In this document: positions 20 to 55,531 of the stretch, piece by piece | Layout of the letters: the number at the start of each line of letters is the position of its first letter | Position numbering within the stretch: the stretch's first letter is position 1 | Origin: Candidatus Cloacimonadales bacterium | Lineage (GTDB): Bacteria; Cloacimonadota; Cloacimonadia; Cloacimonadales; JAIOQZ01 | Assembly (NCBI GenBank): GCA_963665015.2 | Contig: CAXXSY010000005.1 | Coordinates: forward strand, 4,301-68,300 | Length of the DNA: 64,000 bases | Reading direction: 5' to 3' | The notes under the pieces: generated by a model | Told to the model about the DNA's origin: nothing | Seen by the model: only the letters and a program-made list of their open reading frames with translations | Databases searched by the model: none | Translations under genes and position numbers: made by a program

Positions 20-3000
20 ATGGGGGTTTACTGTATTGGATATAAACTCGAGAGAATCAACAGCAATGAATTCGTACTCGCAAATGAGATAGGAAAATAT
101 CGATGGCATTGGGAATTTGATACTGTTACAGATGATAATAGCAAAGCTAAATATCTGTTTAGTGCTAAAAGCCACTTTGCAGGTAACAACGTTGATCCTC
201 ATGTTTATCAGTACATTTTAACGAATCGGAAAACAGGAGAATCTTCTATCCCGAAGCACAAGTTTGTAGATGGAACATATCGTCTTACAGTGCGTACGGA
301 AGATATCGAAGGCAATTCCGATGAAGAAGTGATAGAATTCAGCGTGACCAATGCCGGCACGATACCTGATTCAGTAATATCTACACATGAGACTTGGTCA
401 GGGGTCGTGCATATACCTTATGATGTGCATATAACACAAGAAGGATCCGTCTCGGTATTACCTGGCACCGTGATTGTTTTCTACGACCAAACACGGATGC
501 AAATAGACGGAGGATTTTCAGCGAACTTGAATGGTAGTGGAGACCTTCCTACGATCTGCCCCATGAATCCTGATAATGGATCATGTTCTATCTCGGTATC
601 ATCATCAGCATCCGCCGATTTCGAAGATTTCACTATTAAGGATATTCATATTTATAGAGATAACAATAGAGACGAAATAGTCGGCATCATCAATATCACA
701 GATAACGACAACGTCTCATTCGAAAACTGCCGCTTCATCAACTGCTCGAGTGATTTAGGTGGCGTTATCTATTGCGATAATTCGGATATCAGCATCACCA
801 ACTGTGAGTTCAAATGCAACACAGCGCAATCAGGCGGGGCTATTTATATCGAGAATAGCGATCCGACATTGATCGGCAACCTGTTCTGGAACAATAGCGC
901 CGATAACGGTTCGGCAATATACGCAACGGGCAGCAATCCCGTTATTGTCAATAACACCTTCAGGCATACACTTTACGAGATCGGCCAGAGCGTGATTTAT
1001 CTGGCGAACTCGAGTCCGGATATCTACAACACGATAATCTACAATGAGGTAGATAGCCCAGCCAACTGCTCCATACACTTGAGCGGATCTTCTCAGCCAG
1101 ATTTTTGGAACTGTGCAATCTTCAACGGGCAAGCGACCTTCATTGGACAACCTTTCTTGGGGACATATCAGAACATCATTGAAAGCGATCCTCAGTTTGT
1201 GGATAACTATCAGGTCGGTTACATCATCGAAAACAACTCGCCGTGTGTAAATACCGGCCAATATCCAGTACCCGGTATCACGCTTCCATTAAATGATCTC
1301 GCTGGAGGAACTCGCATCGATGAATCAGTTGTCGACATCGGGGCATATGAGACTCAGCAGAGTAGTGGCGATATCCATGTATCAGGTGATATTACTGAGG
1401 ATACATGCTGGAGTAGCGATGTCGTATATATCGATGATGATGTGAGCGTTCTCGAAAATGTCAGCTTAACGGTGCTACCCGATGTTGATATCGTACTTGC
1501 CGCTAGTTGTGACTTTGAGATAATCGGATCAATACACATCTATGGCTCGGAAAACGAGCCTGTCAATATCTACTGCCCCGTTAACTCGATAACAGGAGCA
1601 ACCTTAACCATCAGCGATCCCTATAGTTCACTGAATACATTGAGAAACGTAAACCAAAGTCGCAGACAAGACGGCATCACAAGAGATGAAGAATCCGCTA
1701 CATGCTTTTCGCACTGCCTCTTTAACTCGGTTGGTGGAGGCTTGAACGGTGAAGGCGTGAAGGTCGTAGTCGCCTCGCAGGAAGAGGTTATCTTTGAGCA
1801 TTGCAGCTTCAGAAACGCTGGCCCAGAAAGCAATGGCGGGTGCCTTGAAATCATCAATTCGTCTCCCATAATCAGAGATTGCGAGTTTACTTCCGGCAAT
1901 GCGGTGTCCGGCGGAGCTATCTATGCGATCAATTCAAACTTCATGTTGCTTGCCAGCATACTGCATGATAACAATGCTACGAATGGAGGAGCGATCTACC
2001 TTGATGAGTATTGCTCACCATTTATTGCAAACTGTACCATTGTCGATAACACCGCAGACTATGGAGGTGCGCTTTTCTGTTATGAAGATACTGCCACCCC
2101 CATCGTGGTTAACAGCATCTTATACTCCAACACAGCAACGGAAGGCGCGCAGGGCTATTTCTACAATTACGGCGGAGTAGGTCAAGGACCTGACGATGAT
2201 CCAACAGGTTTCTTCTACTGCAACATTCAGGGAGGTATTGACAGCCTCTATGTCTATCTCTCAGAAACTCGTAGAGGTGCTTCAAAATTGCGCGCTGGCT
2301 CTTCAACCCGATCAAGCAGAAATGGATTGTACAATGGTAGCTATGAATCAAATATCGATTGTGATCCCTCGTTCATAGCAAACTCTTTCGAACTGCGAAA
2401 TACTTCTCTGTGCATTAACAGGGGTACTCTAGAAGATTGGAGTATTGTATATGATATACATATCAACAACGACCTTATTGGATATCCCCCCACTGACAAC
2501 CTGTATGATATTGGAGCCATAGAAAAGGTACACTATGGCAGTATTTCGATTGGCGGGGTGATTAGTGAGGACTGCTTCCTTCTCGCTGACACGATTTATG
2601 TCTCAACCAACTTGACGATAGCACAAGATGTAACTGTTTTGGTGGATACACTTGTATCCTATATCCAATTTGGTGATGATGTGTCTGTTCTGATTCAGGG
2701 AAGTTTGGAAATTGCTGGAACTGAAAATGATTCGCTCCAATTGTGCGCAATTAATGGTTCAACCAACTGGAAAGGTATGAATGTTGGAAGTACTGGCTCT
2801 CTAAAACTTGCGTTTGCCAGGATGACCGATTCCGCCGCTTCGACGGGAGGAGTTATATCTACTTCTGAAGGCTGTATCGTTACGATATCAAACTGTGAAT
2901 TCAATGACAATCAGGCCACCTCGGGGGGGGCACTTCACGTCAATGGAGGTGAGATACGTATTAATAACACTCTGTTCTGCAACAATGTTGCTAACAATGG

Positions 3001-5989
3001 CGGAGCGATATATCATGTTGATAGCGATACGCTCGACATTGGCCAATGCGTTTTTTCAGGGAATATTGCGGAAGGCACAGGAAATGGTGGAGCAATTTTC
3101 TCAAGCAGTTCCGTCCGTATGACGAATAATCTTTTCCATGATAACATTGCAGTGAATGGAGGGGCTATTTATCAAGAGGATGGAGATATAATTTGTCTCA
3201 ATGCAACCATCATGGGAAATCAAGCATCTCTTAATGGTGGAGGTATCGCATTTAATCGCGATGCTGAGGCTCTACGTTTCGCTCTCTTGAATTCAATTAT
3301 TCGCGGAAATCACGACTCAAACGAAGGTCCATCACAATTCTCTGCCTTGGTGGGTAATCATATTCATATTGCATATTGCAATATTGAAAACATGATGGAT
3401 GAGATATATGATAATCATACCTTTGAAGGGGTAGCGACAGCAGTTTGCGATTATAATCCCGGCTTGAAAGATATTGAATCTGGAGACTATACGCTGGCTC
3501 ATTTCTCGCCATGTATAGATGCTGGCGCACCCACCCCTCACTACCTTTTCTCACACGAATACTCGTTATTCGATAATGATTTCGGCCATGAACCATCTGG
3601 CATGCATTTCGATCAAGGTTTCTGTGAATTCACCGATCCTGCTGGTTGCGAAGTGAAACCAGGCGGATTACATTTTGAAGACACATACATGGGGCGTAGC
3701 TCTTCCGTGTGCTTTACCATTAGAAACAGGGGAACAGAACCACTGATAAGAATCAATGGGATAGAAACGCCTTCAGATTATTTCACCGTTTCTGTTGATA
3801 CTACAAGTTCTACTGGTGCACCAATCAGGAATCAGCTTCGTCGAAAAGAAGAGAGAACAAAAAAAACTCGCCAATATGTTCGAAATTCAAGAAGAAGTAA
3901 CCAACTCGCTCGAAAAGAAATGAGTAGAAGAAATCCAGAAATGCCTTTTGTAAGCAAGAAGAAGGACACTGATTTCAATAACCAGAGCCGTGCAGAAAAG
4001 GCAACTCGTACAAGGTCTTTTTCTCCTATCGAACTAAGTCCTTTTAAGGAAGTGACAATCAGAGTCGACTTTGCTCCAATGCTTGAAGGCACATTTAACG
4101 ATCCGATGTGTATCAGTATCGAATCATCCATTGGTCGCGATGTTATATTGCCTGTTTACGCAACGAGTCTTGATCCAACGGTTCATATCGATTCTGTTGT
4201 AACCTGGACGGATTCTCTTTATATTGATTATCCTGTAGTCGTTGACATTACTGGAACGCTGAACATCTCTAATAATACAGAGATAACCTTTGCTGGTTTT
4301 GGTAAGATTGTCTGCAATGGCGGAACGTTCAATCCCGGAACGGGTGTTTCTTTCATCGGAGAGCCAGATAATTCTGAAGATGGAGTCTATCTGAACATCT
4401 GTTCTCAAATCTCCTTTCTGTCCAGCGAGTTTGTCGACACAAGACTGATTTCACATAGTACTGCTGTGCAAATAGCGAGCTCGTATTTTACCGACTGCTA
4501 TATCGAACATTGTAACAAGGATTTAACAATAGAACAGTCGCAGTTTTCTGGAACCAATGTAAATGCTTTTCGTTCTGTTTTCGGAGGCATGGGGTCTCAA
4601 AATGATTGTATTCATATTGAGCTAAGTGATTTCAATTTCTCAGAATACACGAATCTTGTTTCGATAAGCTCTTACCCAAATTTTGAAATGAACGAAAATA
4701 ATTTTTCAAACTACCAAACAGCTCTTTGGATAAATGAGTCCGGGTTTGGCAAATTGCATGATATCGTCGATAATACGATCTTCAACAATGAATATGGTTA
4801 CGGCATTGAGATTTATCATTCAACTGCTACCATTACTGGCCATAACGTAATCAATAACAACTACATCGGTGTTGCGGCTGTCAGGAATTCCGATGTAACA
4901 ATAAATGGTTCTTGTTATTATCCGTATCAATCGATACATAATAATTTCAATGCCGAATTAGTGTTTGCAAATGATAGTTTCCCAATTCTTTTCTCAAAAA
5001 ACCTGATATACGATCAGCTTTATGGGGACAATCATTTGGTAAGGTGTGTTCATCACAATGCAGATACGCTAGTCGTCGAGGATAACTTTTGGGGGGCTTT
5101 TACACCGACCGAGCACCTTTCCCCGTATGAGTATTATGATTATAATCCTCAATGGATTCCGGGTGATAGTGTTTTCGTGGATTACGATCCAGCTCTGGAG
5201 CTGTTTTCTTCTGCTGAATACAACATGACGCTGACAAACTACTTGCTGGCAGAAACTCAATATAAACAAGTAGTATCCGATTACCCAAGAACTAGATATG
5301 CGAGGACCTCAGCTATAAAACTAATATCTCTTGAAGGTCTGACAGGTGGTGATTATACGGATTTGCAACTTTACTATTTAAATGAGCCTAATTTACATTA
5401 CGATGAACAGGACAGCTTGCTGGCGATTTACCTTTACAACTTGTGCATGATAAAAACAGGGAATTATCCTGCCGCGATTTCCTGGTTCGAAACAATCATT
5501 GATGATCCGCGCTCTGAAGCAGATTCTATTTATGCCGTAATTGATATCGGATATACGTACCTCCTGATGGAGTCAGATAGTCGTTACAGAGGTTATGTCG
5601 GAAGATACCCGCAGTACAAACCCAGATCGTTTGATGATTACCTGTCAAATCGTGAAACCTTGCTTAAGGATATGCTTGATCAAACCACAGAAGCAGTTCC
5701 AGAATTACCTGTATACGTAGTTCTTGAGCAGAATCACCCCAATCCATTCAATCCGGAAACAACGATCAGTTATTCAATTCCTGCGGAGGGACAAGTCTCG
5801 CTAACTGTTTATAATATCAAGGGGCAGAAGGTAATTACCTTGGTTAATGAGATTCAGGAAAAAGGAAAACAATCTGTCATCTGGAAGGGTGTTAATTCAT
5901 ACGGGAAATCAGTATCATCAGGTGTCTATCTGTATAAATTGGATGCCTGCGGAAAGTCAATAACTAGAAAAATGCTTATGTTGAAATAA
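20..5989 (+). CDS. Giant secreted parallel beta-helix (Pmp-like repeat) protein with a T9SS C-terminal sorting domain; probably 5'-partial
   Basis: The frame is open back to base 2 and no signal peptide follows the first Met, so the true start is probably upstream of the window. It has four repeated modules rich in GGAIY / N-x-A-x-x-GGA and FxxN motifs. The last ~85 aa (NHPNPFNPETTISY..YNIKGQKV..SGVYLYKL..KMLMLK) form a T9SS type-A CTD. Confidence 0.8.
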   Translation: MGVYCIGYKLERINSNEFVLANEIGKYRWHWEFDTVTDDNSKAKYLFSAKSHFAGNNVDPHVYQYILTNRKTGESSIPKHKFVDGTYRLTVRTEDIEGNSDEEVIEFSVTNAGTIPDSVISTHETWSGVVHIPYDVHITQEGSVSVLPGTVIVFYDQTRMQIDGGFSANLNGSGDLPTICPMNPDNGSCSISVSSSASADFEDFTIKDIHIYRDNNRDEIVGIINITDNDNVSFENCRFINCSSDLGGVIYCDNSDISITNCEFKCNTAQSGGAIYIENSDPTLIGNLFWNNSADNGSAIYATGSNPVIVNNTFRHTLYEIGQSVIYLANSSPDIYNTIIYNEVDSPANCSIHLSGSSQPDFWNCAIFNGQATFIGQPFLGTYQNIIESDPQFVDNYQVGYIIENNSPCVNTGQYPVPGITLPLNDLAGGTRIDESVVDIGAYETQQSSGDIHVSGDITEDTCWSSDVVYIDDDVSVLENVSLTVLPDVDIVLAASCDFEIIGSIHIYGSENEPVNIYCPVNSITGATLTISDPYSSLNTLRNVNQSRRQDGITRDEESATCFSHCLFNSVGGGLNGEGVKVVVASQEEVIFEHCSFRNAGPESNGGCLEIINSSPIIRDCEFTSGNAVSGGAIYAINSNFMLLASILHDNNATNGGAIYLDEYCSPFIANCTIVDNTADYGGALFCYEDTATPIVVNSILYSNTATEGAQGYFYNYGGVGQGPDDDPTGFFYCNIQGGIDSLYVYLSETRRGASKLRAGSSTRSSRNGLYNGSYESNIDCDPSFIANSFELRNTSLCINRGTLEDWSIVYDIHINNDLIGYPPTDNLYDIGAIEKVHYGSISIGGVISEDCFLLADTIYVSTNLTIAQDVTVLVDTLVSYIQFGDDVSVLIQGSLEIAGTENDSLQLCAINGSTNWKGMNVGSTGSLKLAFARMTDSAASTGGVISTSEGCIVTISNCEFNDNQATSGGALHVNGGEIRINNTLFCNNVANNGGAIYHVDSDTLDIGQCVFSGNIAEGTGNGGAIFSSSSVRMTNNLFHDNIAVNGGAIYQEDGDIICLNATIMGNQASLNGGGIAFNRDAEALRFALLNSIIRGNHDSNEGPSQFSALVGNHIHIAYCNIENMMDEIYDNHTFEGVATAVCDYNPGLKDIESGDYTLAHFSPCIDAGAPTPHYLFSHEYSLFDNDFGHEPSGMHFDQGFCEFTDPAGCEVKPGGLHFEDTYMGRSSSVCFTIRNRGTEPLIRINGIETPSDYFTVSVDTTSSTGAPIRNQLRRKEERTKKTRQYVRNSRRSNQLARKEMSRRNPEMPFVSKKKDTDFNNQSRAEKATRTRSFSPIELSPFKEVTIRVDFAPMLEGTFNDPMCISIESSIGRDVILPVYATSLDPTVHIDSVVTWTDSLYIDYPVVVDITGTLNISNNTEITFAGFGKIVCNGGTFNPGTGVSFIGEPDNSEDGVYLNICSQISFLSSEFVDTRLISHSTAVQIASSYFTDCYIEHCNKDLTIEQSQFSGTNVNAFRSVFGGMGSQNDCIHIELSDFNFSEYTNLVSISSYPNFEMNENNFSNYQTALWINESGFGKLHDIVDNTIFNNEYGYGIEIYHSTATITGHNVINNNYIGVAAVRNSDVTINGSCYYPYQSIHNNFNAELVFANDSFPILFSKNLIYDQLYGDNHLVRCVHHNADTLVVEDNFWGAFTPTEHLSPYEYYDYNPQWIPGDSVFVDYDPALELFSSAEYNMTLTNYLLAETQYKQVVSDYPRTRYARTSAIKLISLEGLTGGDYTDLQLYYLNEPNLHYDEQDSLLAIYLYNLCMIKTGNYPAAISWFETIIDDPRSEADSIYAVIDIGYTYLLMESDSRYRGYVGRYPQYKPRSFDDYLSNRETLLKDMLDQTTEAVPELPVYVVLEQNHPNPFNPETTISYSIPAEGQVSLTVYNIKGQKVITLVNEIQEKGKQSVIWKGVNSYGKSVSSGVYLYKLDACGKSITRKMLMLK

Positions 5990-26561: not shown

Positions 26562-26992
26562 GTCTGCATCAACTCCGAGACCTTCTGGGCCAGCGTGTTG
26601 GACGAGTGAAGAACGTTTGCCAACGCCTGCAGGGCGTCCTCGTCCTGCGCGAAGGCGTCGATGATGTTGCCGAGGGTAAGCTGCGTTTCGATGGTCTCGA
26701 TGCGCTCCTCGAACGGCGAAGTCGTCGTCGCGTAGGTGTGGTCGACCTTCTTGATCTTTGAGCTGAGACCGCTGAAAAGCGTAACCGAGAGGTTGATCAC
26801 ATCGCCGTTCTCGACACCGCTCAGCTCGCTTCCATCGATGAACACGTATGTGCTCAGAACCGTTTCGTGATGCACCTCTGAGCCGTCCTTCTCGATGAGG
26901 ATTTCAGCCTGCGAGAAGTGCACTGTAGGCGAGGTGTTGAACAGGATGCGAATGCCGCCACTGCGGTTGACGACGTCCACGCCCAGCGTCAC
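26558..26992 (-). CDS. Phage structural protein, probably 5'-truncated
   Basis: GTG start only. The frame is open upstream to a TGA at about 27045, where GC-rich phage DNA ends, so the N-terminus is probably lost. Confidence 0.45.
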   Translation of the reverse strand: MTLGVDVVNRSGGIRILFNTSPTVHFSQAEILIEKDGSEVHHETVLSTYVFIDGSELSGVENGDVINLSVTLFSGLSSKIKKVDHTYATTTSPFEERIETIETQLTLGNIIDAFAQDEDALQALANVLHSSNTLAQKVSELMQT

Positions 26993-27125
26993 GGAACCAA
27001 GGTCGGGCAGCAGCAGGTCGAGCGTGTTCTCGACCGTGTCCAGATTTTTTCATTGACACTCATCCTTTATTTTGTCACGAAATTAACATGGCTAAAAACA
27101 GTTTTATAACCATGGAGGAACGACC

Positions 27126-27530
27126 ATGTATCGTACTATGATTATTGTCGCTTTGATATGTATTCTGCTCGTTGCCTGTGAAACGAAAAGCACACTGCTT
27201 CACAAAGCGTATAATGAAGAAACCCTTAGTACCGACCTCGAACAACTTAGTAAAAAGCTTACCTCTGAAGAATACTATATACTGAAGGAATCCATCGAAT
27301 TCAACAAGGAAAAGATAGATGCTGAAGAGTGTTTATCGTATGGCTGGCTTTTATCCGATGGAAAACTGCGAAAGTTTGAAAGAGAAATAGAGGAAATGAG
27401 GAGAATGGATCCCAAATACATACAGGAAAAGCTAAGTCAGTACATAACTGTAACCTGTAGCAAGAAAGAGTTCAATGAGGGACAGGCAGGCACAGACAGG
27501 CTTTGTGAAAATAATCGAAGGTCATCTTGA
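27126..27530 (+). CDS. Small lipoprotein, hypothetical
   Basis: Signal peptide with lipobox (IILLVAC). The last ~17 codons (EGQAGTDRLCENNRRSS) are read from the hairpin repeat and the IS end. Confidence 0.55.
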   Translation: MYRTMIIVALICILLVACETKSTLLHKAYNEETLSTDLEQLSKKLTSEEYYILKESIEFNKEKIDAEECLSYGWLLSDGKLRKFEREIEEMRRMDPKYIQEKLSQYITVTCSKKEFNEGQAGTDRLCENNRRSS

Positions 27531-29189
27531 CGCAAATACCGAGTCGGATATTATAACCTCATCAATAGTGAGGTTTTATGCGATATATACCAAAGGACGA
27601 CCGGTATCAGATTTCGGCGGAATTTTGCTGTCTCGATGACATGATTGAGTCGGACAACATGGTCCGAATCATCGATTATTTCGTAGATGAGCTTGACCTT
27701 GAGGAGCATGGATTCACGAACACGAGGCCAAAAGATAAGGGACGTAAGCCCTATAATCCAGGTGACTTACTGAAGCTTTACATTTATGGATATTTGAATC
27801 GGATCAATACGAGCAGAAAGCTCGAACGCGAATGCAAGCGCAACATCGAAGTACGGTGGTTGATGGGAAATTTATGCCCCGATTTCAAGACCATTGCGGA
27901 CTTCAGGAAAGATAATCGCAGCATTCTCAAGAAGGTATTCCGGGAGTTCACGTATATATGTCGCGGGGCTGATCTGATCGATTTCAAACTTACAGCCATA
28001 GACGGGAGCTTTTTCTCTGCCGTTAACCACAACGGTAAAAACTACAGTTGTAATAAGTTACGCAAGCTACTGGAGAAGCTTGACCGAAAGATCGATGCGT
28101 ATCTGGACGAGATATCGAGATTGGACAAGCAGGAGTTTTCGAAGATATCGGATTTGCAGCAGGCGATCGCGGATATTCAAAGTAAACAGAAGGAATATCG
28201 AGAAATACAGGATGTCCTCGATGCAACGGGCGAGACGCAGGTATCCCTCACGGACCCCGATAGCAAGATGATGACCAAGCCCAAAGCCAAAACCGATATG
28301 AGTTACAACGTCCAACTCGCTGTAGATTCGAAAAATAGCTTGATCTCCGAATGTGATGTAACGAACGACGGAAACGACAGTAAGCAATTGTCGAAAATGG
28401 TTGAGAAAGTGCTCGATACTCACGCTCCCTCTGAATTATCGGTTGTTGCGGACGCGGGATACGCATCCGGCGAAGAGATCGATAAGTGCCTTAAAATGAA
28501 TGTAGATACATACGTTCCGATACCGAAGAAGAAGCAATCGCAAGACGACGATCCATACTCTCCCGCGAATTTCAAATATATTCCAGAAGAAGACTGCTAC
28601 CGTTGTCCGGCAGGCAACAAGTTACCGAAATCGTCATTCAAGAAAGATCGAAATCAGATAACCTACGGCAGACGAAAGACTTGCAAAGGCTGTCCGCATT
28701 TCTCTCAATGTGTTCCTTCCGGATCGAAGTATAAGATCATTCATCGAAGCGCCTTTGAAACGGCAATCCAGCGTCAATGCACAGTCAATCAGATGAACCA
28801 GGAAAAGCTGAAACAGCGCCAAATGATTGTCGAGCATCCATTTGGCACAATCAAACATGCGATGCGGCTGGGTGATTTTGTTACCCGAGGGCTTCCGTCG
28901 GTCAATGGAGAGTTTGCATTGATTGCACTCGCCTACAACATGAAGAGAGCCTACAACATCCTCGGATTCGACAGGCTCAAAGCGGCTATTCAAGTCCATT
29001 TTGAGCACTTAAGAACAATATGTGCCTTTATATGCTCATTTCTGATCAATTTCTGCTGTCCGAGAGCCATGTATGCCAAATCAGAGGCATTTTCGCGGTA
29101 AAAAAATTGTGGTTCTCGACAGAAAATTCCCTGAAATACTCAATCTCCTTTATTGCCAAAAACCGGAAATCGAATTATCACACAGCCTG
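27497..29189 (+). mobile_element. IS1182-family insertion sequence (copy 1)
   Basis: Imperfect terminal inverted repeats CAGGCTTTGTGAAAATAATCGA (27497-27518) and TCGAATTATCACACAGCCTG (29170-29189) flank the transposase. The flanks are the two halves of a GGCAGGCAC / CCTGCCC hairpin. Confidence 0.55.
27578..29101 (+). CDS. IS1182-family (IS5-like) DDE transposase
   Basis: N-terminal InsH-type region (..NMVRIIDYFVDELDL..GRKPYNPGDLLKLYIYGYLNRINTSRKLERECKRNIEVRWLMG..PDFKTIADFRKDN) and a C-terminal DDE region (..IVEHPFGTIKH..). Confidence 0.85.
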   Translation: MRYIPKDDRYQISAEFCCLDDMIESDNMVRIIDYFVDELDLEEHGFTNTRPKDKGRKPYNPGDLLKLYIYGYLNRINTSRKLERECKRNIEVRWLMGNLCPDFKTIADFRKDNRSILKKVFREFTYICRGADLIDFKLTAIDGSFFSAVNHNGKNYSCNKLRKLLEKLDRKIDAYLDEISRLDKQEFSKISDLQQAIADIQSKQKEYREIQDVLDATGETQVSLTDPDSKMMTKPKAKTDMSYNVQLAVDSKNSLISECDVTNDGNDSKQLSKMVEKVLDTHAPSELSVVADAGYASGEEIDKCLKMNVDTYVPIPKKKQSQDDDPYSPANFKYIPEEDCYRCPAGNKLPKSSFKKDRNQITYGRRKTCKGCPHFSQCVPSGSKYKIIHRSAFETAIQRQCTVNQMNQEKLKQRQMIVEHPFGTIKHAMRLGDFVTRGLPSVNGEFALIALAYNMKRAYNILGFDRLKAAIQVHFEHLRTICAFICSFLINFCCPRAMYAKSEAFSR

Positions 29190-29501
29190 GGGGACCTGCC
29201 CTTTCTTTCCTCTCCGCAATCGCATGAACACCAACGCGCGGTGAGAGATTGGAAAAGACTGACGCGGACATAGTGTGTGAAAAATAAAAAAACTGACTGG
29301 TTATCTTATTCACGGTTTCCAAGAGAAATACTCAGCATCTAACAACCACAAGACAATACCAACAAAATGAATACCGGGCATATTTTTATCTGAAAACGGT
29401 ATAAAACATGCAATGATAGCGGCAACGAACCATTGCTCTCGAAGTGACACGAGAAGGGGGATTTGATCTTTGACTTTCACAGTAATGACAGGAGGTACGT
29501 A

Positions 29502-32306: not shown

Positions 32307-32325
32307 CTTCGTTTCAAACAAAATG

Positions 32326-32447
32326 TAGGGGCAGGTCCCCGTGCCTGCCCTTCGATGCCTGGTAACCAACTGTTTATCAAGCGCTTGCAACGTCTATATC
32401 ATGTTGGCAAAGAATTGAGAGGGCAGGCACGGGGACCTGCCCCTACG
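32326..32447. repeat. Perfect 27-bp inverted repeat separated by 68 bp (GC-rich hairpin repeat family)
   Basis: GTAGGGGCAGGTCCCCGTGCCTGCCCT (32326-32352) is the exact reverse complement of 32421-32447. Each arm is itself a GGGCAGG..CCTGCCC hairpin. A diverged copy lies at 46219-46331. Confidence 0.8.
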
Positions 32448-32534
32448 ACAGATAAGAGAATCGGTCGCGCATTTTCACACAGCTTGAGAGGTCTGCCCTT
32501 CTATCTGTGGCTTTAATTTTCTCGAACTTTTCTT

Positions 32535-46201: not shown

Positions 46202-46315
46202 GTTTGGCATAGACGCAAGGTAGGGGCAGACCTCCGTGTCTGCCCTTCTATACCTGATAATCATTTGTGAGTCGGGCGCTTGCAACGTCTATGTCATGTT
46301 GGAAAATAATTGAAA

Positions 46316-46497
46316 GGGCAGGCACAGACAGACTGTGTGAAAATGCGATGTATCCAGAGAAACCCCTCCCTGGCCCTCCCCTAAATAGGGGAGGGAAATC
46401 GTTGGTGGGCAGAGTAATAGCTCCTTTCCCCTACGTAGGGGAAAGGTTGGGATAGGGATTCCCTACGGCATTTTCACACAGTCTGAGAGGCTTGCCC
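46316..46497. mobile_element. MITE-like element with the IS1182-copy-1 type ends
   Basis: Perfect 18-bp terminal inverted repeats CAGACTGTGTGAAAATGC (46329-46346) and GCATTTTCACACAGTCTG (46468-46485). There is no ORF. The interior holds two strong hairpins (46374-46395, and a 24-bp perfect palindrome at 46423-46446). It is flanked by GGGCAGGCAC and CTTGCCC half-hairpins. Confidence 0.6.
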
Positions 46498-46617
46498 CTA
46501 CAGCAGAGAAGAAAATCGGCCGTGCATTTTCCCTCAGTCTGGGAGAGTTGCTCTTTCCGGGAGATCGATGACTTGCAGCAAGACCGATCAACCTTCGGAC
46601 GCTATGTGACCACAAAT

Positions 46618-53659: not shown

Positions 53660-53799
53660 CGGTTGTATTCAGGCAACAAGTTTTTGTTATGGATGCGAAA
53701 ATTGCTTGAACGATGGATTTCATTGGATATGGATAGAGACAAGGGAGCAGGCAAGGGTGCCTGCGTTCCACTGGGGATAGAGATGCAGGCAAGGGTGCC

Positions 53800-55408
53800 T
53801 CAGGCTGTTGACCAAGCATGGTCTGCGGCAACGTGTGCACTTGTAATCATAATACAGCGGTTCTATTTTACGATTTTCAGGCTGAAATTGGGCATCGGAA
53901 GCCGTATATGCCCCCAGCGAAAAAAAGACGAAAAAGCCTGTTGACCAGCTTTTTCACGTTTTGGGCAATAGCGGTCATGTAGGCTTGTTCTTTCACTCTC
54001 TCCAATCCTCTGTATCTTGCGTATCGATATCCGTGTAGTTGCTTCGCGTTGGCGAAGCTCCGCTCAATCGTCTCTTTTCGTCCCTTGAAGATTTCTCTTC
54101 CACAGAACGATTTCCGATTTCTGTCTATCTCGTCTCGATAGTCTTGCCAGACATGACGATGCACGATTCTTTGACATTTCTTACTCGCAGTGCATTTATC
54201 TCGAAGTGGACACTTACGACAGTCTTCAGGGTTGGATATATACGCCTGACTGCCATCCCGATTAGTTCCTTGATAGCTTAAAATACACCCGTTTGGGCAG
54301 ACATAGTAATCGTTTATGGGATCATAGTCGAACCGCCATTTTCTGAAAAGTCCTTTGTGACCCGAGTCTCGACGTGGGCTGATCACTCCCATTATCTTTC
54401 GTTCGTGCAGCTTCTTACAGATATAGTACGTATTGTATCCCGAATCAAGACCGACGGCTTTGACGTCGAATCCAAACCGTTCGATCTGCCGATCGAGCAG
54501 CGCTAGATAAGGGATACAATCATTGACATTGCCAGGGAATACATCCACATCCGTGATGAAGTTACATTTGGAATCAACCGTGCGCTGAGTCAGAAAGAAA
54601 AAGCCCTTGGGTTTGCCGTCTCGAACCATGTATCCGCTGTCCGGATCCGTCGTGCTGGACTTGATCTTTTTGGTGGGTGGATCATCTTCTTTTCGCGGCG
54701 GTAGAGGTTTTTTACCCCTTTTCTCACGGTCATCGTTGATGTCTTTATCCAGTTCTTTGAGATAGGTTTTCGGCTCTTCTTCCACCACAATCTTCTTAAA
54801 CTTCTGCTTGTTAGCGTTTGCCTTCGTGTGGGTCGAATCCGTATAGAGTATCTTTCCCTCGACCAGACCTTTCGCAATCCCCTGCCGGACAATCTCAACA
54901 AAGATTTCCTCAAACACCTTGCTATCGGTGAACCTTCTGCGCCTGTTCTGGCTAAATACGGAATGGTGCGGTATCTTGTCCAGCAGCCCAAACCCCAAAA
55001 ACCAGCGGTAAGCCACATTTACCTCGATCTCTTTAACAAGCTGGCGTTCGGAACGGATGCCAAATAGATACCCAATCAACAGCATTTTGAACAATCGGAT
55101 CGGATGAACGGGGGGCCTGCCATTATCTTCGCAATAAAGATGAGCTGTATTCTTCAGGATAAAGGAAAAGTCGATGTGGCGTTGGATTTTTCGCAGAAGG
55201 TGATTCTTCGGAACCAAATCCTCGATGTTAACGAACTCCATCTCAGGTTGAAAATCGATTTCTTTTTTCAGCATTATTTACCTCAAATATGAGACAACAA
55301 TAATGCGCATCCCTCTGATGGCAAGCGTTTTATGCTATATTTACAACCTTTTTCATGTGCTGTAAATCCCGCACGGAAAATGGACGGTCATCTTTGTCAA
55401 CAGTCTGA
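53800..55408 (-). mobile_element. IS1182-family insertion sequence (copy 2) with a 12-bp flanking direct repeat
   Basis: Ends TCAGGCTGTTGAC (53800-) and GTCAACAGTCTGA (-55408) are inverted repeats. The identical 12-mer GGCAAGGGTGCC directly abuts both ends (53788-53799 and 55409-55420). Confidence 0.65.
53877..55274 (-). CDS. IS1182-family (IS5-like) DDE transposase
   Basis: N-terminal ..LVPKNHLLRKIQRHIDFSFI..RPPVHPIRLFKMLLIGYLFGIRSERQLVKEIEVNVAYRWFLG.. and C-terminal ..ETIERSFANAKQLHGYRYARYRG.. Confidence 0.85.
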   Translation of the reverse strand: MLKKEIDFQPEMEFVNIEDLVPKNHLLRKIQRHIDFSFILKNTAHLYCEDNGRPPVHPIRLFKMLLIGYLFGIRSERQLVKEIEVNVAYRWFLGFGLLDKIPHHSVFSQNRRRRFTDSKVFEEIFVEIVRQGIAKGLVEGKILYTDSTHTKANANKQKFKKIVVEEEPKTYLKELDKDINDDREKRGKKPLPPRKEDDPPTKKIKSSTTDPDSGYMVRDGKPKGFFFLTQRTVDSKCNFITDVDVFPGNVNDCIPYLALLDRQIERFGFDVKAVGLDSGYNTYYICKKLHERKIMGVISPRRDSGHKGLFRKWRFDYDPINDYYVCPNGCILSYQGTNRDGSQAYISNPEDCRKCPLRDKCTASKKCQRIVHRHVWQDYRDEIDRNRKSFCGREIFKGRKETIERSFANAKQLHGYRYARYRGLERVKEQAYMTAIAQNVKKLVNRLFRLFFAGGIYGFRCPISA

Positions 55409-55467
55409 GGCAAGGGTGCCTGCGTACCACCGGGGATAGAGATGCAGCCAGGGGTGCCTGCGTACCC

Positions 55468-55531
55468 GTAGCGCTCGACCTCCGGGCGAGCCACTCCCAC
55501 TCTCTTGTAGCGCTCGACCTCCGGGCGAGCC
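55468..55531. repeat. Tandem 25-bp hairpin repeat (2 copies)
   Basis: GTAGCGCTCGACCTCCGGGCGAGCC at 55468-55492 and 55507-55531, just downstream (minus strand) of the stop at 55550. Confidence 0.7.

Follow-up and report, generated by a model that had tools for sequence, protein, structure and literature searches.

A 64-kb stretch of a Candidatus Cloacimonadales contig (CAXXSY010000005.1; the whole 64,000 nucleotides are called the window here, and positions are counted from its first letter) carries an insertion sequence (IS) of the IS1182 family at 27497-29189. Our comparative analyses indicate, with a probability that we put at roughly 0.8, that this element and its derivatives of the miniature inverted-repeat transposable element type (MITEs) are aimed at the apex of GC-rich hairpins of the repetitive extragenic palindromic (REP) type. 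At least 12 insertions from several metagenomes and genomes split such hairpins at the loop with a 3-bp duplication, the duplicated loop triplets being TCC, TCT, or the complements GGA and AGA, and once TCA. Both stems were kept and 3 nt were duplicated for a MITE in the window and for the copies and relatives at loci L001, L004, L006 to L008, L319, and L326 (handles beginning with L denote loci retrieved from other contigs). Insertions were found in both orientations, the stem sequences differed among targets while the loop position was kept, and the same hairpins were present unoccupied elsewhere. A preliminary description of this DNA had placed the IS, and likewise the MITE, between the halves of a GC-rich hairpin and had offered targeting of the hairpin loop as one of two readings; every junction that it quoted is present in the sequence, and the targeting reading is borne out by these loop-splitting insertions, by the intact copies, and by filled and empty paralogous sites within the window.

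The IS is 1,693 bp long, lies on the plus strand, and is bounded by 16-nt terminal inverted repeats (TIRs) that match at 14 of 16 positions and begin CAGGCT: the left one, CAGGCTTTGTGAAAAT, is the start of the IS (27497-27512, plus strand), and the right one, at 29174-29189, reads ATTATCACACAGCCTG on the plus strand and CAGGCTGTGTGATAAT inward on the minus strand. The sole open reading frame (ORF) of the IS is an intact transposase gene (27578-29101, plus strand, 507 aa) whose product combines an N-terminal DUF772 domain with DDE_Tnp_1 and DDE_Tnp_1_6 in Pfam. It scored 376.7 bits over residues 7-459 against the NCBIfam model for the IS1182 family (NF033551; curated cutoff, 270 bits), and every IS5 model scored below its own cutoff. 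Family model, domain architecture, a single ORF between TIRs in an element of the ~1.3-2 kb size class, and hairpin targeting all agree with membership in IS1182. No protein on record exactly matched the window transposase. The end motif TTTTCACACAGYCTG (at most 2 mismatches) occurred 7 times in the window versus 0.28 expected, a count reached in 0 of 100 shuffles.

Within the window, a MITE-split site (46315-46501) and an intact site (32420-32446) form a paralogous filled and empty pair. The MITE (46329-46485, no strand assigned) is a 157-bp, ORF-less element running from CAGACTGTG to CACAGTCTG with perfect 18-bp TIRs (CAGACTGTGTGAAAATGC); it is flanked by AGGGCAGGCAC (46315-46325) plus AGA on the left and by AGA plus GGCTTGCCCCTAC (46489-46501) on the right, a perfect 3-bp AGA/AGA target duplication. 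Joined, its empty site AGGGCAGGCACAGAGGCTTGCCCCTAC folds into an 8-bp stem with a 6-nt loop. Its short length, lack of an ORF, TIRs matching those of the IS, 3-bp duplication, and occurrence in multiple copies identify it as a MITE, and further MITE- or IS-type ends were found at 32486, at 46541, and in L002 and L008. The empty-site comparator is an unoccupied REP doublet resembling bacterial interspersed mosaic elements (BIMEs) or REP doublets forming hairpins (REPINs). This doublet (32325-32446, plus strand) consists of a REP, GTAGGGGCAGGTCCCCGTGCCTGCCCT (32325-32351), a 68-nt linker, and an inverted REP, AGGGCAGGCACGGGGACCTGCCCCTAC (32420-32446), that ends CTAC and is the exact reverse complement of the first arm; the 27-nt arms are 100% complementary. 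The inverted REP holds the intact hairpin GGGCAGGCACGGGGACCTGCCC at 32421-32442, 2 nt to the left of the 32423-32444 given in the preliminary description. The MITE, in turn, sits in a second doublet, the left part of which (46220-46328, plus strand) comprises the REP GTAGGGGCAGACCTCCGTGTCTGCCCT (46220-46246), a 68-nt linker, and the inverted-REP left half followed by AGA (46326-46328), and of which the right part (46486-46501, plus strand) comprises the second AGA and the REP right half with its CTAC foot.

Next to each doublet comes a right arm of 40 nt, terminated by an IS-type end and a further half-hairpin. After the first doublet, this solo arm (32447-32498, plus strand) has the IS/MITE-type end GCATTTTCACACAGCTTG, which stops at 32486, and then AGA and GGTCTGCCC, a REP right half; after the second, a degenerate arm (46502-46553, plus strand) parallels it with GCATTTTCCCTCAGTCTG, GGA, and GAGTTGCTC. 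Across the 64 kb, 3 intact and about 4 split hairpins were identified, all intergenic, the intact 3 belonging to the two copies of this module, and both module copies start about 20 nt past the stop codon of a type IX secretion system (T9SS) cargo gene. Inverted REP pairs with a short linker, in a unit that is repeated twice in the window and also in L001 to L004, correspond to a BIME/REPIN organization.

Near-identical copies of the IS were found in one ENA metagenome, where four contigs (L001 to L004) encode a protein 98% identical to the window transposase. Between the window and L002 to L004, the IS DNA was 99.2% identical over 1,708 bp, versus ~74-81% for neighboring genes. In these contigs, the IS forms part of a 1,862-bp composite (locus coordinates 2750-4611) present in four copies in unrelated DNA. 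The composite starts 170 nt upstream of the IS at a second left end, CAGACTGTGTGAAAATATAATC, which is followed in order by an arm of ~30 nt, a T9SS-like tail, a REP, a 68-nt linker, the half-REP ACAGGCAGGCAC-AGA, and the IS. It contains an apparent stop codon and the tail of a T9SS cargo gene (TAGCTTCGTT) and looks like captured host DNA, enclosed by a solo left end on one side and the IS on the other, that was subsequently mobilized. The outer flanks of the composite read (G)TAGGG(G/TG)CAGACC-TCY on the left (GGGGCAGACC TCY) and TCY-GTGTCTGCCC on the right. The triplets adjoining the left and right ends were TCT and TCT in L001 and TCC and TCC in L004, and the L004 flanks joined with a single TCC give GGGGCAGACCTCCGTGTCTGCCC, which is the intact REP at window positions 46223-46245 letter for letter. 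The half-hairpins varied slightly among the four composite sites and the inside of the composite was nearly invariant, as is expected of target DNA.

Other members of the group land in other hairpins at the same position. An 83%-identical IS is present in three copies (L006 to L008) in one Candidatus Cloacimonadales metagenome-assembled genome (MAG), with unrelated DNA beyond a shared target, GTAG(C/G)CGCCGATC|TCC|GAGCGGCG; a 78% relative on a JGI contig (L319) occupies the same target hairpin. At least 3 intact copies of this hairpin, each after GTA, were found elsewhere in the same MAG; among the matches listed in a scan with the joined target, most of the others were chance matches in high-GC genomes. 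In L326 (52% identity), a hairpin with a 12-bp stem has a GGA duplication midway in its 11-nt loop. A 53%-identical IS from another metagenome, present in four copies (L320 to L323), has a TCA duplication in a weak hairpin (4-bp stem), and the copies share 17 nt of left flank (CCCTTCGACTCCGCTCA) and 10 nt of right flank (TCAGGGAGCT); these common flanks point to either another repeated target or an element of greater length.

The other reading offered in the preliminary description, that long TIRs have the half-hairpins as their outermost part and that the intact hairpins are minimal copies or excision footprints, now appears very improbable. An alignment query against one genome per species yielded 80 loci of relatives (a single-protein query of genome contigs matched none), and the tip CAGRCYGTGTGAAAA was found at both ends of relatives with only 37-43% amino acid identity in Alphaproteobacteria, Acidobacteriota, Bacillota, and others, as well as at the ends of those with 52-83% identity. 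Across at least 50 relatives, down to 37-38% identity, the tip is conserved, and because this family-wide tip begins at CAG, the half-hairpins lie outside the element. In addition, the right side of one and the same IS reads GGGGACCTGCCC in the window versus TCTGTGTCTGCCC in L001 to L003, from which it follows that the half-hairpin does not travel with the IS right end; half-hairpins otherwise vary as well (GGGTGCAG or GGGGCAG; TCT or TCC) next to a nearly invariant element. Intact hairpins are not footprints, because they hold one copy of the 3-nt loop and not two. Three observations do favor long TIRs: the flanks GGCAGACCTCY and RGAGTGTCTGCC of L001 to L004 extend the inverted symmetry of the ends, half-hairpins of one kind accompany all copies of an IS lineage in a given genome, and a few distant relatives (L066, L068, and L014) have TIRs that extend 4-12 nt outward.

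That the hairpin leads a life of its own counts further against long TIRs. The target is a GTAG-headed imperfect palindrome with a GGG/CCC foot, often arranged here in inverted doublets, and GTAGGGGCAGGTCCCCGTGCCTGCCC, with its 7-8-bp stem, has the form of a REP (a 20-40-nt imperfect palindrome headed by 5' GT[AG]G; the definition and the role of GTAG follow PMC3333891). Folding energies of the REP arms lie between -8 and -8.7 kcal/mol, with z between -2.9 and -4.1. A 23-nt pattern, GGGGCAGRYCYCCGTGYCTGCCC, occurred in at least 120 stretches of genome contigs from more than a dozen phyla, among them Chloroflexota, Planctomycetota, Acidobacteriota, Desulfobacterota, Latescibacterota, and Bacteroidota. 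Among the matches listed, GTA precedes nearly all of the ~130 cross-phylum copies, many adjoin sister hairpins GGGCNNCCACRGGGGNNGCCCCTAC (e.g., GGGCAACCACAGGGGGTTGCCCCTAC), and hardly any carry an IS1182-type tip within 400 nt. REPs are usually regarded as lineage-specific. The near-identity of this hairpin across phyla is striking and probably reflects the scattered distribution of subclass 2.4 of TnpA-REP, the REP-associated tyrosine transposases (RAYTs). In three loci (L132, L138, and L181), the hairpin lies in frame inside a RAYT-like Y1_Tnp ORF (Pfam E=6.8e-8) with the HUH motif ..VMPNHFHGIVI.., the hairpin-encoded VGAGPRACP, and ..LPDVVHRFK..; in that loop, the L138 ORF holds several different REPs in series. 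A REP within a Y1_Tnp gene is a published hallmark of TnpA-REP subclass 2.4 (PMC6006769). As an independent and widespread REP, the hairpin is thus not a footprint or minimal copy of the IS. An origin of the doublet linker from a RAYT gene was also considered (tblastn, E=9e-4 on the doublet), and the match proved to be nearly all hairpin-encoded VGAGPRACP and is not counted as evidence.

Among the distant relatives, 49 distinct insertions were compared, and the commonest duplication was 4 bp (GGTC/GACC, GGCC, CTTG, and others). Stem scores of at least 6 were obtained for 26% of the reconstructed empty sites versus 4.6% of control positions in the same loci, and scores of at least 8 for 12% versus 0.3% (insertion sites versus controls, Mann-Whitney p=0.001). 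When sites were folded with ViennaRNA under DNA parameters, pairs spanning the insertion site were more frequent than in controls (p=3e-6), a test in which L002, L005, L319, L320, and L323 were mis-paired by end picking and add noise. Clear apex cases were L013, L014, L017, L034, L035, L059, L066, L068, and L081, and apex targeting looks like a tendency of the clade to which exceptions exist. Alphaproteobacterial relatives (~40% identity; L031, L036, L045, L048, L057, L059, L060, L065, and others) had 4-bp GGTC/GACC duplications, and these insertions lie in a recurring palindrome, (AT)GTCCGCTTTG-GGTC-AAAAGCGGAC; a different repeated hairpin is the landing site in this group. If insertion were random and copies simply survived in neutral intergenic repeat clusters, hairpins would not be enriched at the precise point of insertion over nearby flanking DNA; we find this scenario scarcely credible even though the hairpins are intergenic and lie just past genes, where insertion harms least. 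Nor would such survival place every copy at the same 3 nt of a 22-nt hairpin, in both orientations and in at least 4 hairpin sequences.

Several observations weigh against loop targeting or complicate it, and the first concern the window IS itself. Its left flank (27482-27496, plus strand) consists of ACA, GGCAGGCAC (the REP left half, 27485-27493), and AGA (27494-27496); that is, 27482-27493 reads ACAGGCAGGCAC, and not GGGCAGGCAC as given in the preliminary description, followed by AGA. Its right flank, GGGGACCTGCCC (29190-29201, plus strand), consists of GGG and GACCTGCCC. The triplets adjoining the ends differ (AGA on the left versus GGG on the right), and the window IS is therefore without a target duplication; its left half-hairpin ACAGGCAGGCAC is, moreover, atypical and common to L001 to L004. 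Taken by itself, this copy would therefore be no proof of targeting. Among the four composite copies, L002 and L003 have a 1-nt mismatch in the duplication (TCC on the left, TCT on the right), and the hairpin that surrounds the long MITE resident in L002 is only half convincing. A 120-bp MITE in L008 (1177-1296) consists of two arms and a truncated REP, GTAGGGGCAGGTCCCCTAC, at its middle; its flanks form a perfect inverted repeat, GCGATGATC-TCC ... GGA-GATCATCGC, and the inverted triplets (TCC versus GGA) are unexplained by a 3-bp duplication model. A 4-bp GATC duplication with TCC inside the TIR was considered as an explanation of this MITE and fails on the IS copies of the MAG. The mean folding energy of distant-relative sites was not significantly lower than in controls (p=0.09). 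None of the copies yielded an orthologous empty site; all filled and empty comparisons are between paralogous repeats, and Logan contigs from four runs contained no IS-less joint or allele.

The flanks of the window IS are informative about its history. The 15-nt left flank ACAGGCAGGCACAGA recurs without any difference beside the inner IS left end in the L001 to L004 composites, and homology to these loci begins exactly at 27482. The right flank matches the intact REP's right half (32431-32442) in full and is homologous to the right flank of L001. The window IS would then be a secondary product, with its left flank ACAGGCAGGCAC-AGA derived from a copy sited in the inverted REP of a doublet and its right flank GGG-GACCTGCCC derived from another REP; recombination between two copies, or a rearrangement beside the IS, probably accounts for it rather than one clean insertion. 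Alternatively, the IS may have moved as a unit starting at A27482, which gives a GGG/GGG duplication; the chance of such a match is not small, however, and the target would be just half a REP. A scan of the metagenome for the inner left end of the window IS gave no match. One Logan unitig (26987-29245) from three runs of the source sample spans the IS together with its two junctions, with a depth equal to that of the flanks, and the window IS is therefore probably single-copy in the source population.

Further features were observed around the IS. A lipoprotein-like ORF of 134 aa to its left (27126-27530) reads into it and had no homologue besides itself among 5.8 billion proteins. In runs X1 to X3, a Logan loose end, TTTTCACACAGCCTG-TCT-GTGT, joins at 29196; here a right end of the MITE type lies in the loop of a REP, at a site of the same sample that is paralogous or related. 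Downstream, 29202-29268 resembles the right arm described above and is homologous to the L001 right flank, and a degenerate left-end-like sequence, CATAGTGTGTGAAAAA (29269-29284), 80 nt from the IS, is possibly a remnant of an older element. Other GC-rich hairpin families in the window include those at 55468-55488 and 55507-55527 and at 53749-53800 and 55408-55459; GTAGCGCTCGACCTCCGGGCG recurs unchanged in Cloacimonadales MAG loci L006, L008, and L256, and GCAGGCAAGGGTGCCTGC occurs both in the window and upstream of the L004 target. The window genome has several REP-like families.

If the REPs here were not, or not solely, repeats propagated by a host RAYT but traveled as cargo of IS1182-type MITEs and composites, the family would spread its own landing pads and the association between element and hairpin would be partly self-made. 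Every GGGCAG-type REP doublet in the window and in L001 to L004 is joined to an IS-type arm (32447-32486, 46502-46541, the left arm of L001 to L004, and both arms of the element resident in L002), a REP remnant lies midway in the L008 MITE, the L002 composite sits in a REP of the resident long MITE, and neither the window nor the Cloacimonadota loci examined contained a RAYT gene. Against this, solo REPs lacking arms are the targets in L001, L003, and L004 and occur in the MAG as well, the same REP family is present in many phyla with no IS ends nearby and inside RAYT genes, and the left arm holds apparent captured host DNA (TAGCTTCGTT), which points to capture and not design. We regard such self-made association as rather unlikely, and targeting of preexisting REP hairpins remains our preferred reading. 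A broader proposal, which we advance only tentatively and at less than even odds, is that a deep, multiphylum IS1182 clade with the tip CAGACTGTGTGAAAA is structure specific, cutting at the apices of hairpins with a 3-4-nt stagger, and that MITEs and composites in Cloacimonadota carry REP doublets of the subclass 2.4 type, seeding their own landing pads and producing nested mosaics of REP, MITE, and IS. If true, REPs would have a route of spread independent of RAYT.

Mechanistically, the transpososome may respond to the shape of an extruded hairpin or cruciform, or else to the palindrome's two-fold symmetry in the duplex, combined in either case with a short preference for TCY in the loop, and the 3'-OH attacks of a DDE transpososome would be staggered by 3 nt at the loop. 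Such a course would correspond to "pathway c" (loop-only duplication) of the published IS1272 model (PMC5678879). The enzyme may read shape or sequence, the same alternative as for IS1272, and the finding opens no new question. It does provide a well-documented natural case of a DDE transposase inserting at the tip of a DNA hairpin, with an autonomous IS, MITEs, a composite with apparent captured host DNA, and both filled and empty targets. For annotation, it accounts for the repeat clusters stacked behind the T9SS cargo genes of these MAGs and cautions that half-REPs beside IS ends are target remains and not parts of the IS.

Insertion of an IS in a REP is not without precedent. IS1397 insertion makes a short target duplication. 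In PMC1525189, IS1397 and ISKpn1 (IS3 family) are described as inserting in the loop of the palindromic units (REPs) of enterobacterial BIMEs; ISPpu9, ISPpu10, ISPa11, and IS621 (IS110), ISRm22 (IS4), ISRm5 (IS256), and ISNm1106 (IS5) are also listed as targeting REPs. The window element resembles IS1397 and ISKpn1 in its insertion at REP-hairpin loops and its use of inverted REP doublets and differs from them in its unrelated transposase (theirs is of the IS3 type, with two ORFs and a frameshift), its host, and its REP sequences. Elements of the IS110 type depend on a guide RNA together with a DEDD recombinase (PMC11208160), a mechanism unlike that of the DDE element here. The five REP-targeting families named in PMC1525189 (IS3, IS110, IS4, IS256, and IS5) do not include IS1182; REPs are the preferred sites of the elements listed. 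The comparison with unrelated IS families drawn in the preliminary description is not needed, given that hairpin targeting is published for IS1182 itself (PMC5678879, PMC4923244). The REPs resemble the REP/BIME/REPIN sequences of TnpA-REP (RAYT) subclass 2.4 (PMC6006769, PMC3333891, PMC3116915) in their 5' GTAG, imperfect palindrome of ~22 nt, foot of three G-C pairs, and linker-spaced inverted doublet, and differ in that the doublets are joined to IS-type arms.

Within the IS1182 family, some members target palindromes (Siguier et al. 2015, as cited in PMC5678879 and PMC4923244), and the staphylococcal IS1272 and TnSha1 target stem-loops that are deleted or replaced, with no duplication (PMC5678879, PMC4923244). 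The window element shares with these two a transposase of the same family and stem-loop targets that show little conservation of primary sequence and often lie just past genes, and the extra left end of the 1,862-bp composite parallels that of the larger forms IS1272L and TnSha1, the latter with three inverted repeats. Whereas IS1272 and TnSha1 replace the stem-loop, here both stems persist and 3 bases of the loop become duplicated, a behavior that sets the element apart from stem-loop-replacing transposons and agrees with the pathway c that Wan et al. drew as an unobserved alternative for IS1272 (PMC5678879). Their targets are, in addition, unique terminators in staphylococci, whereas those described here are REP-type repeats in Cloacimonadota. 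Hairpin targeting is, in sum, an already published habit of IS1182, and the window element is a further example and not a new kind of element; what is added is a Cloacimonadota member of the family with REP-type targets, a stem-preserving and loop-duplicating mode, MITEs, and a second-left-end composite, by which IS1182 hairpin targeting is extended from staphylococcal terminators to the REPs of an uncultured phylum.

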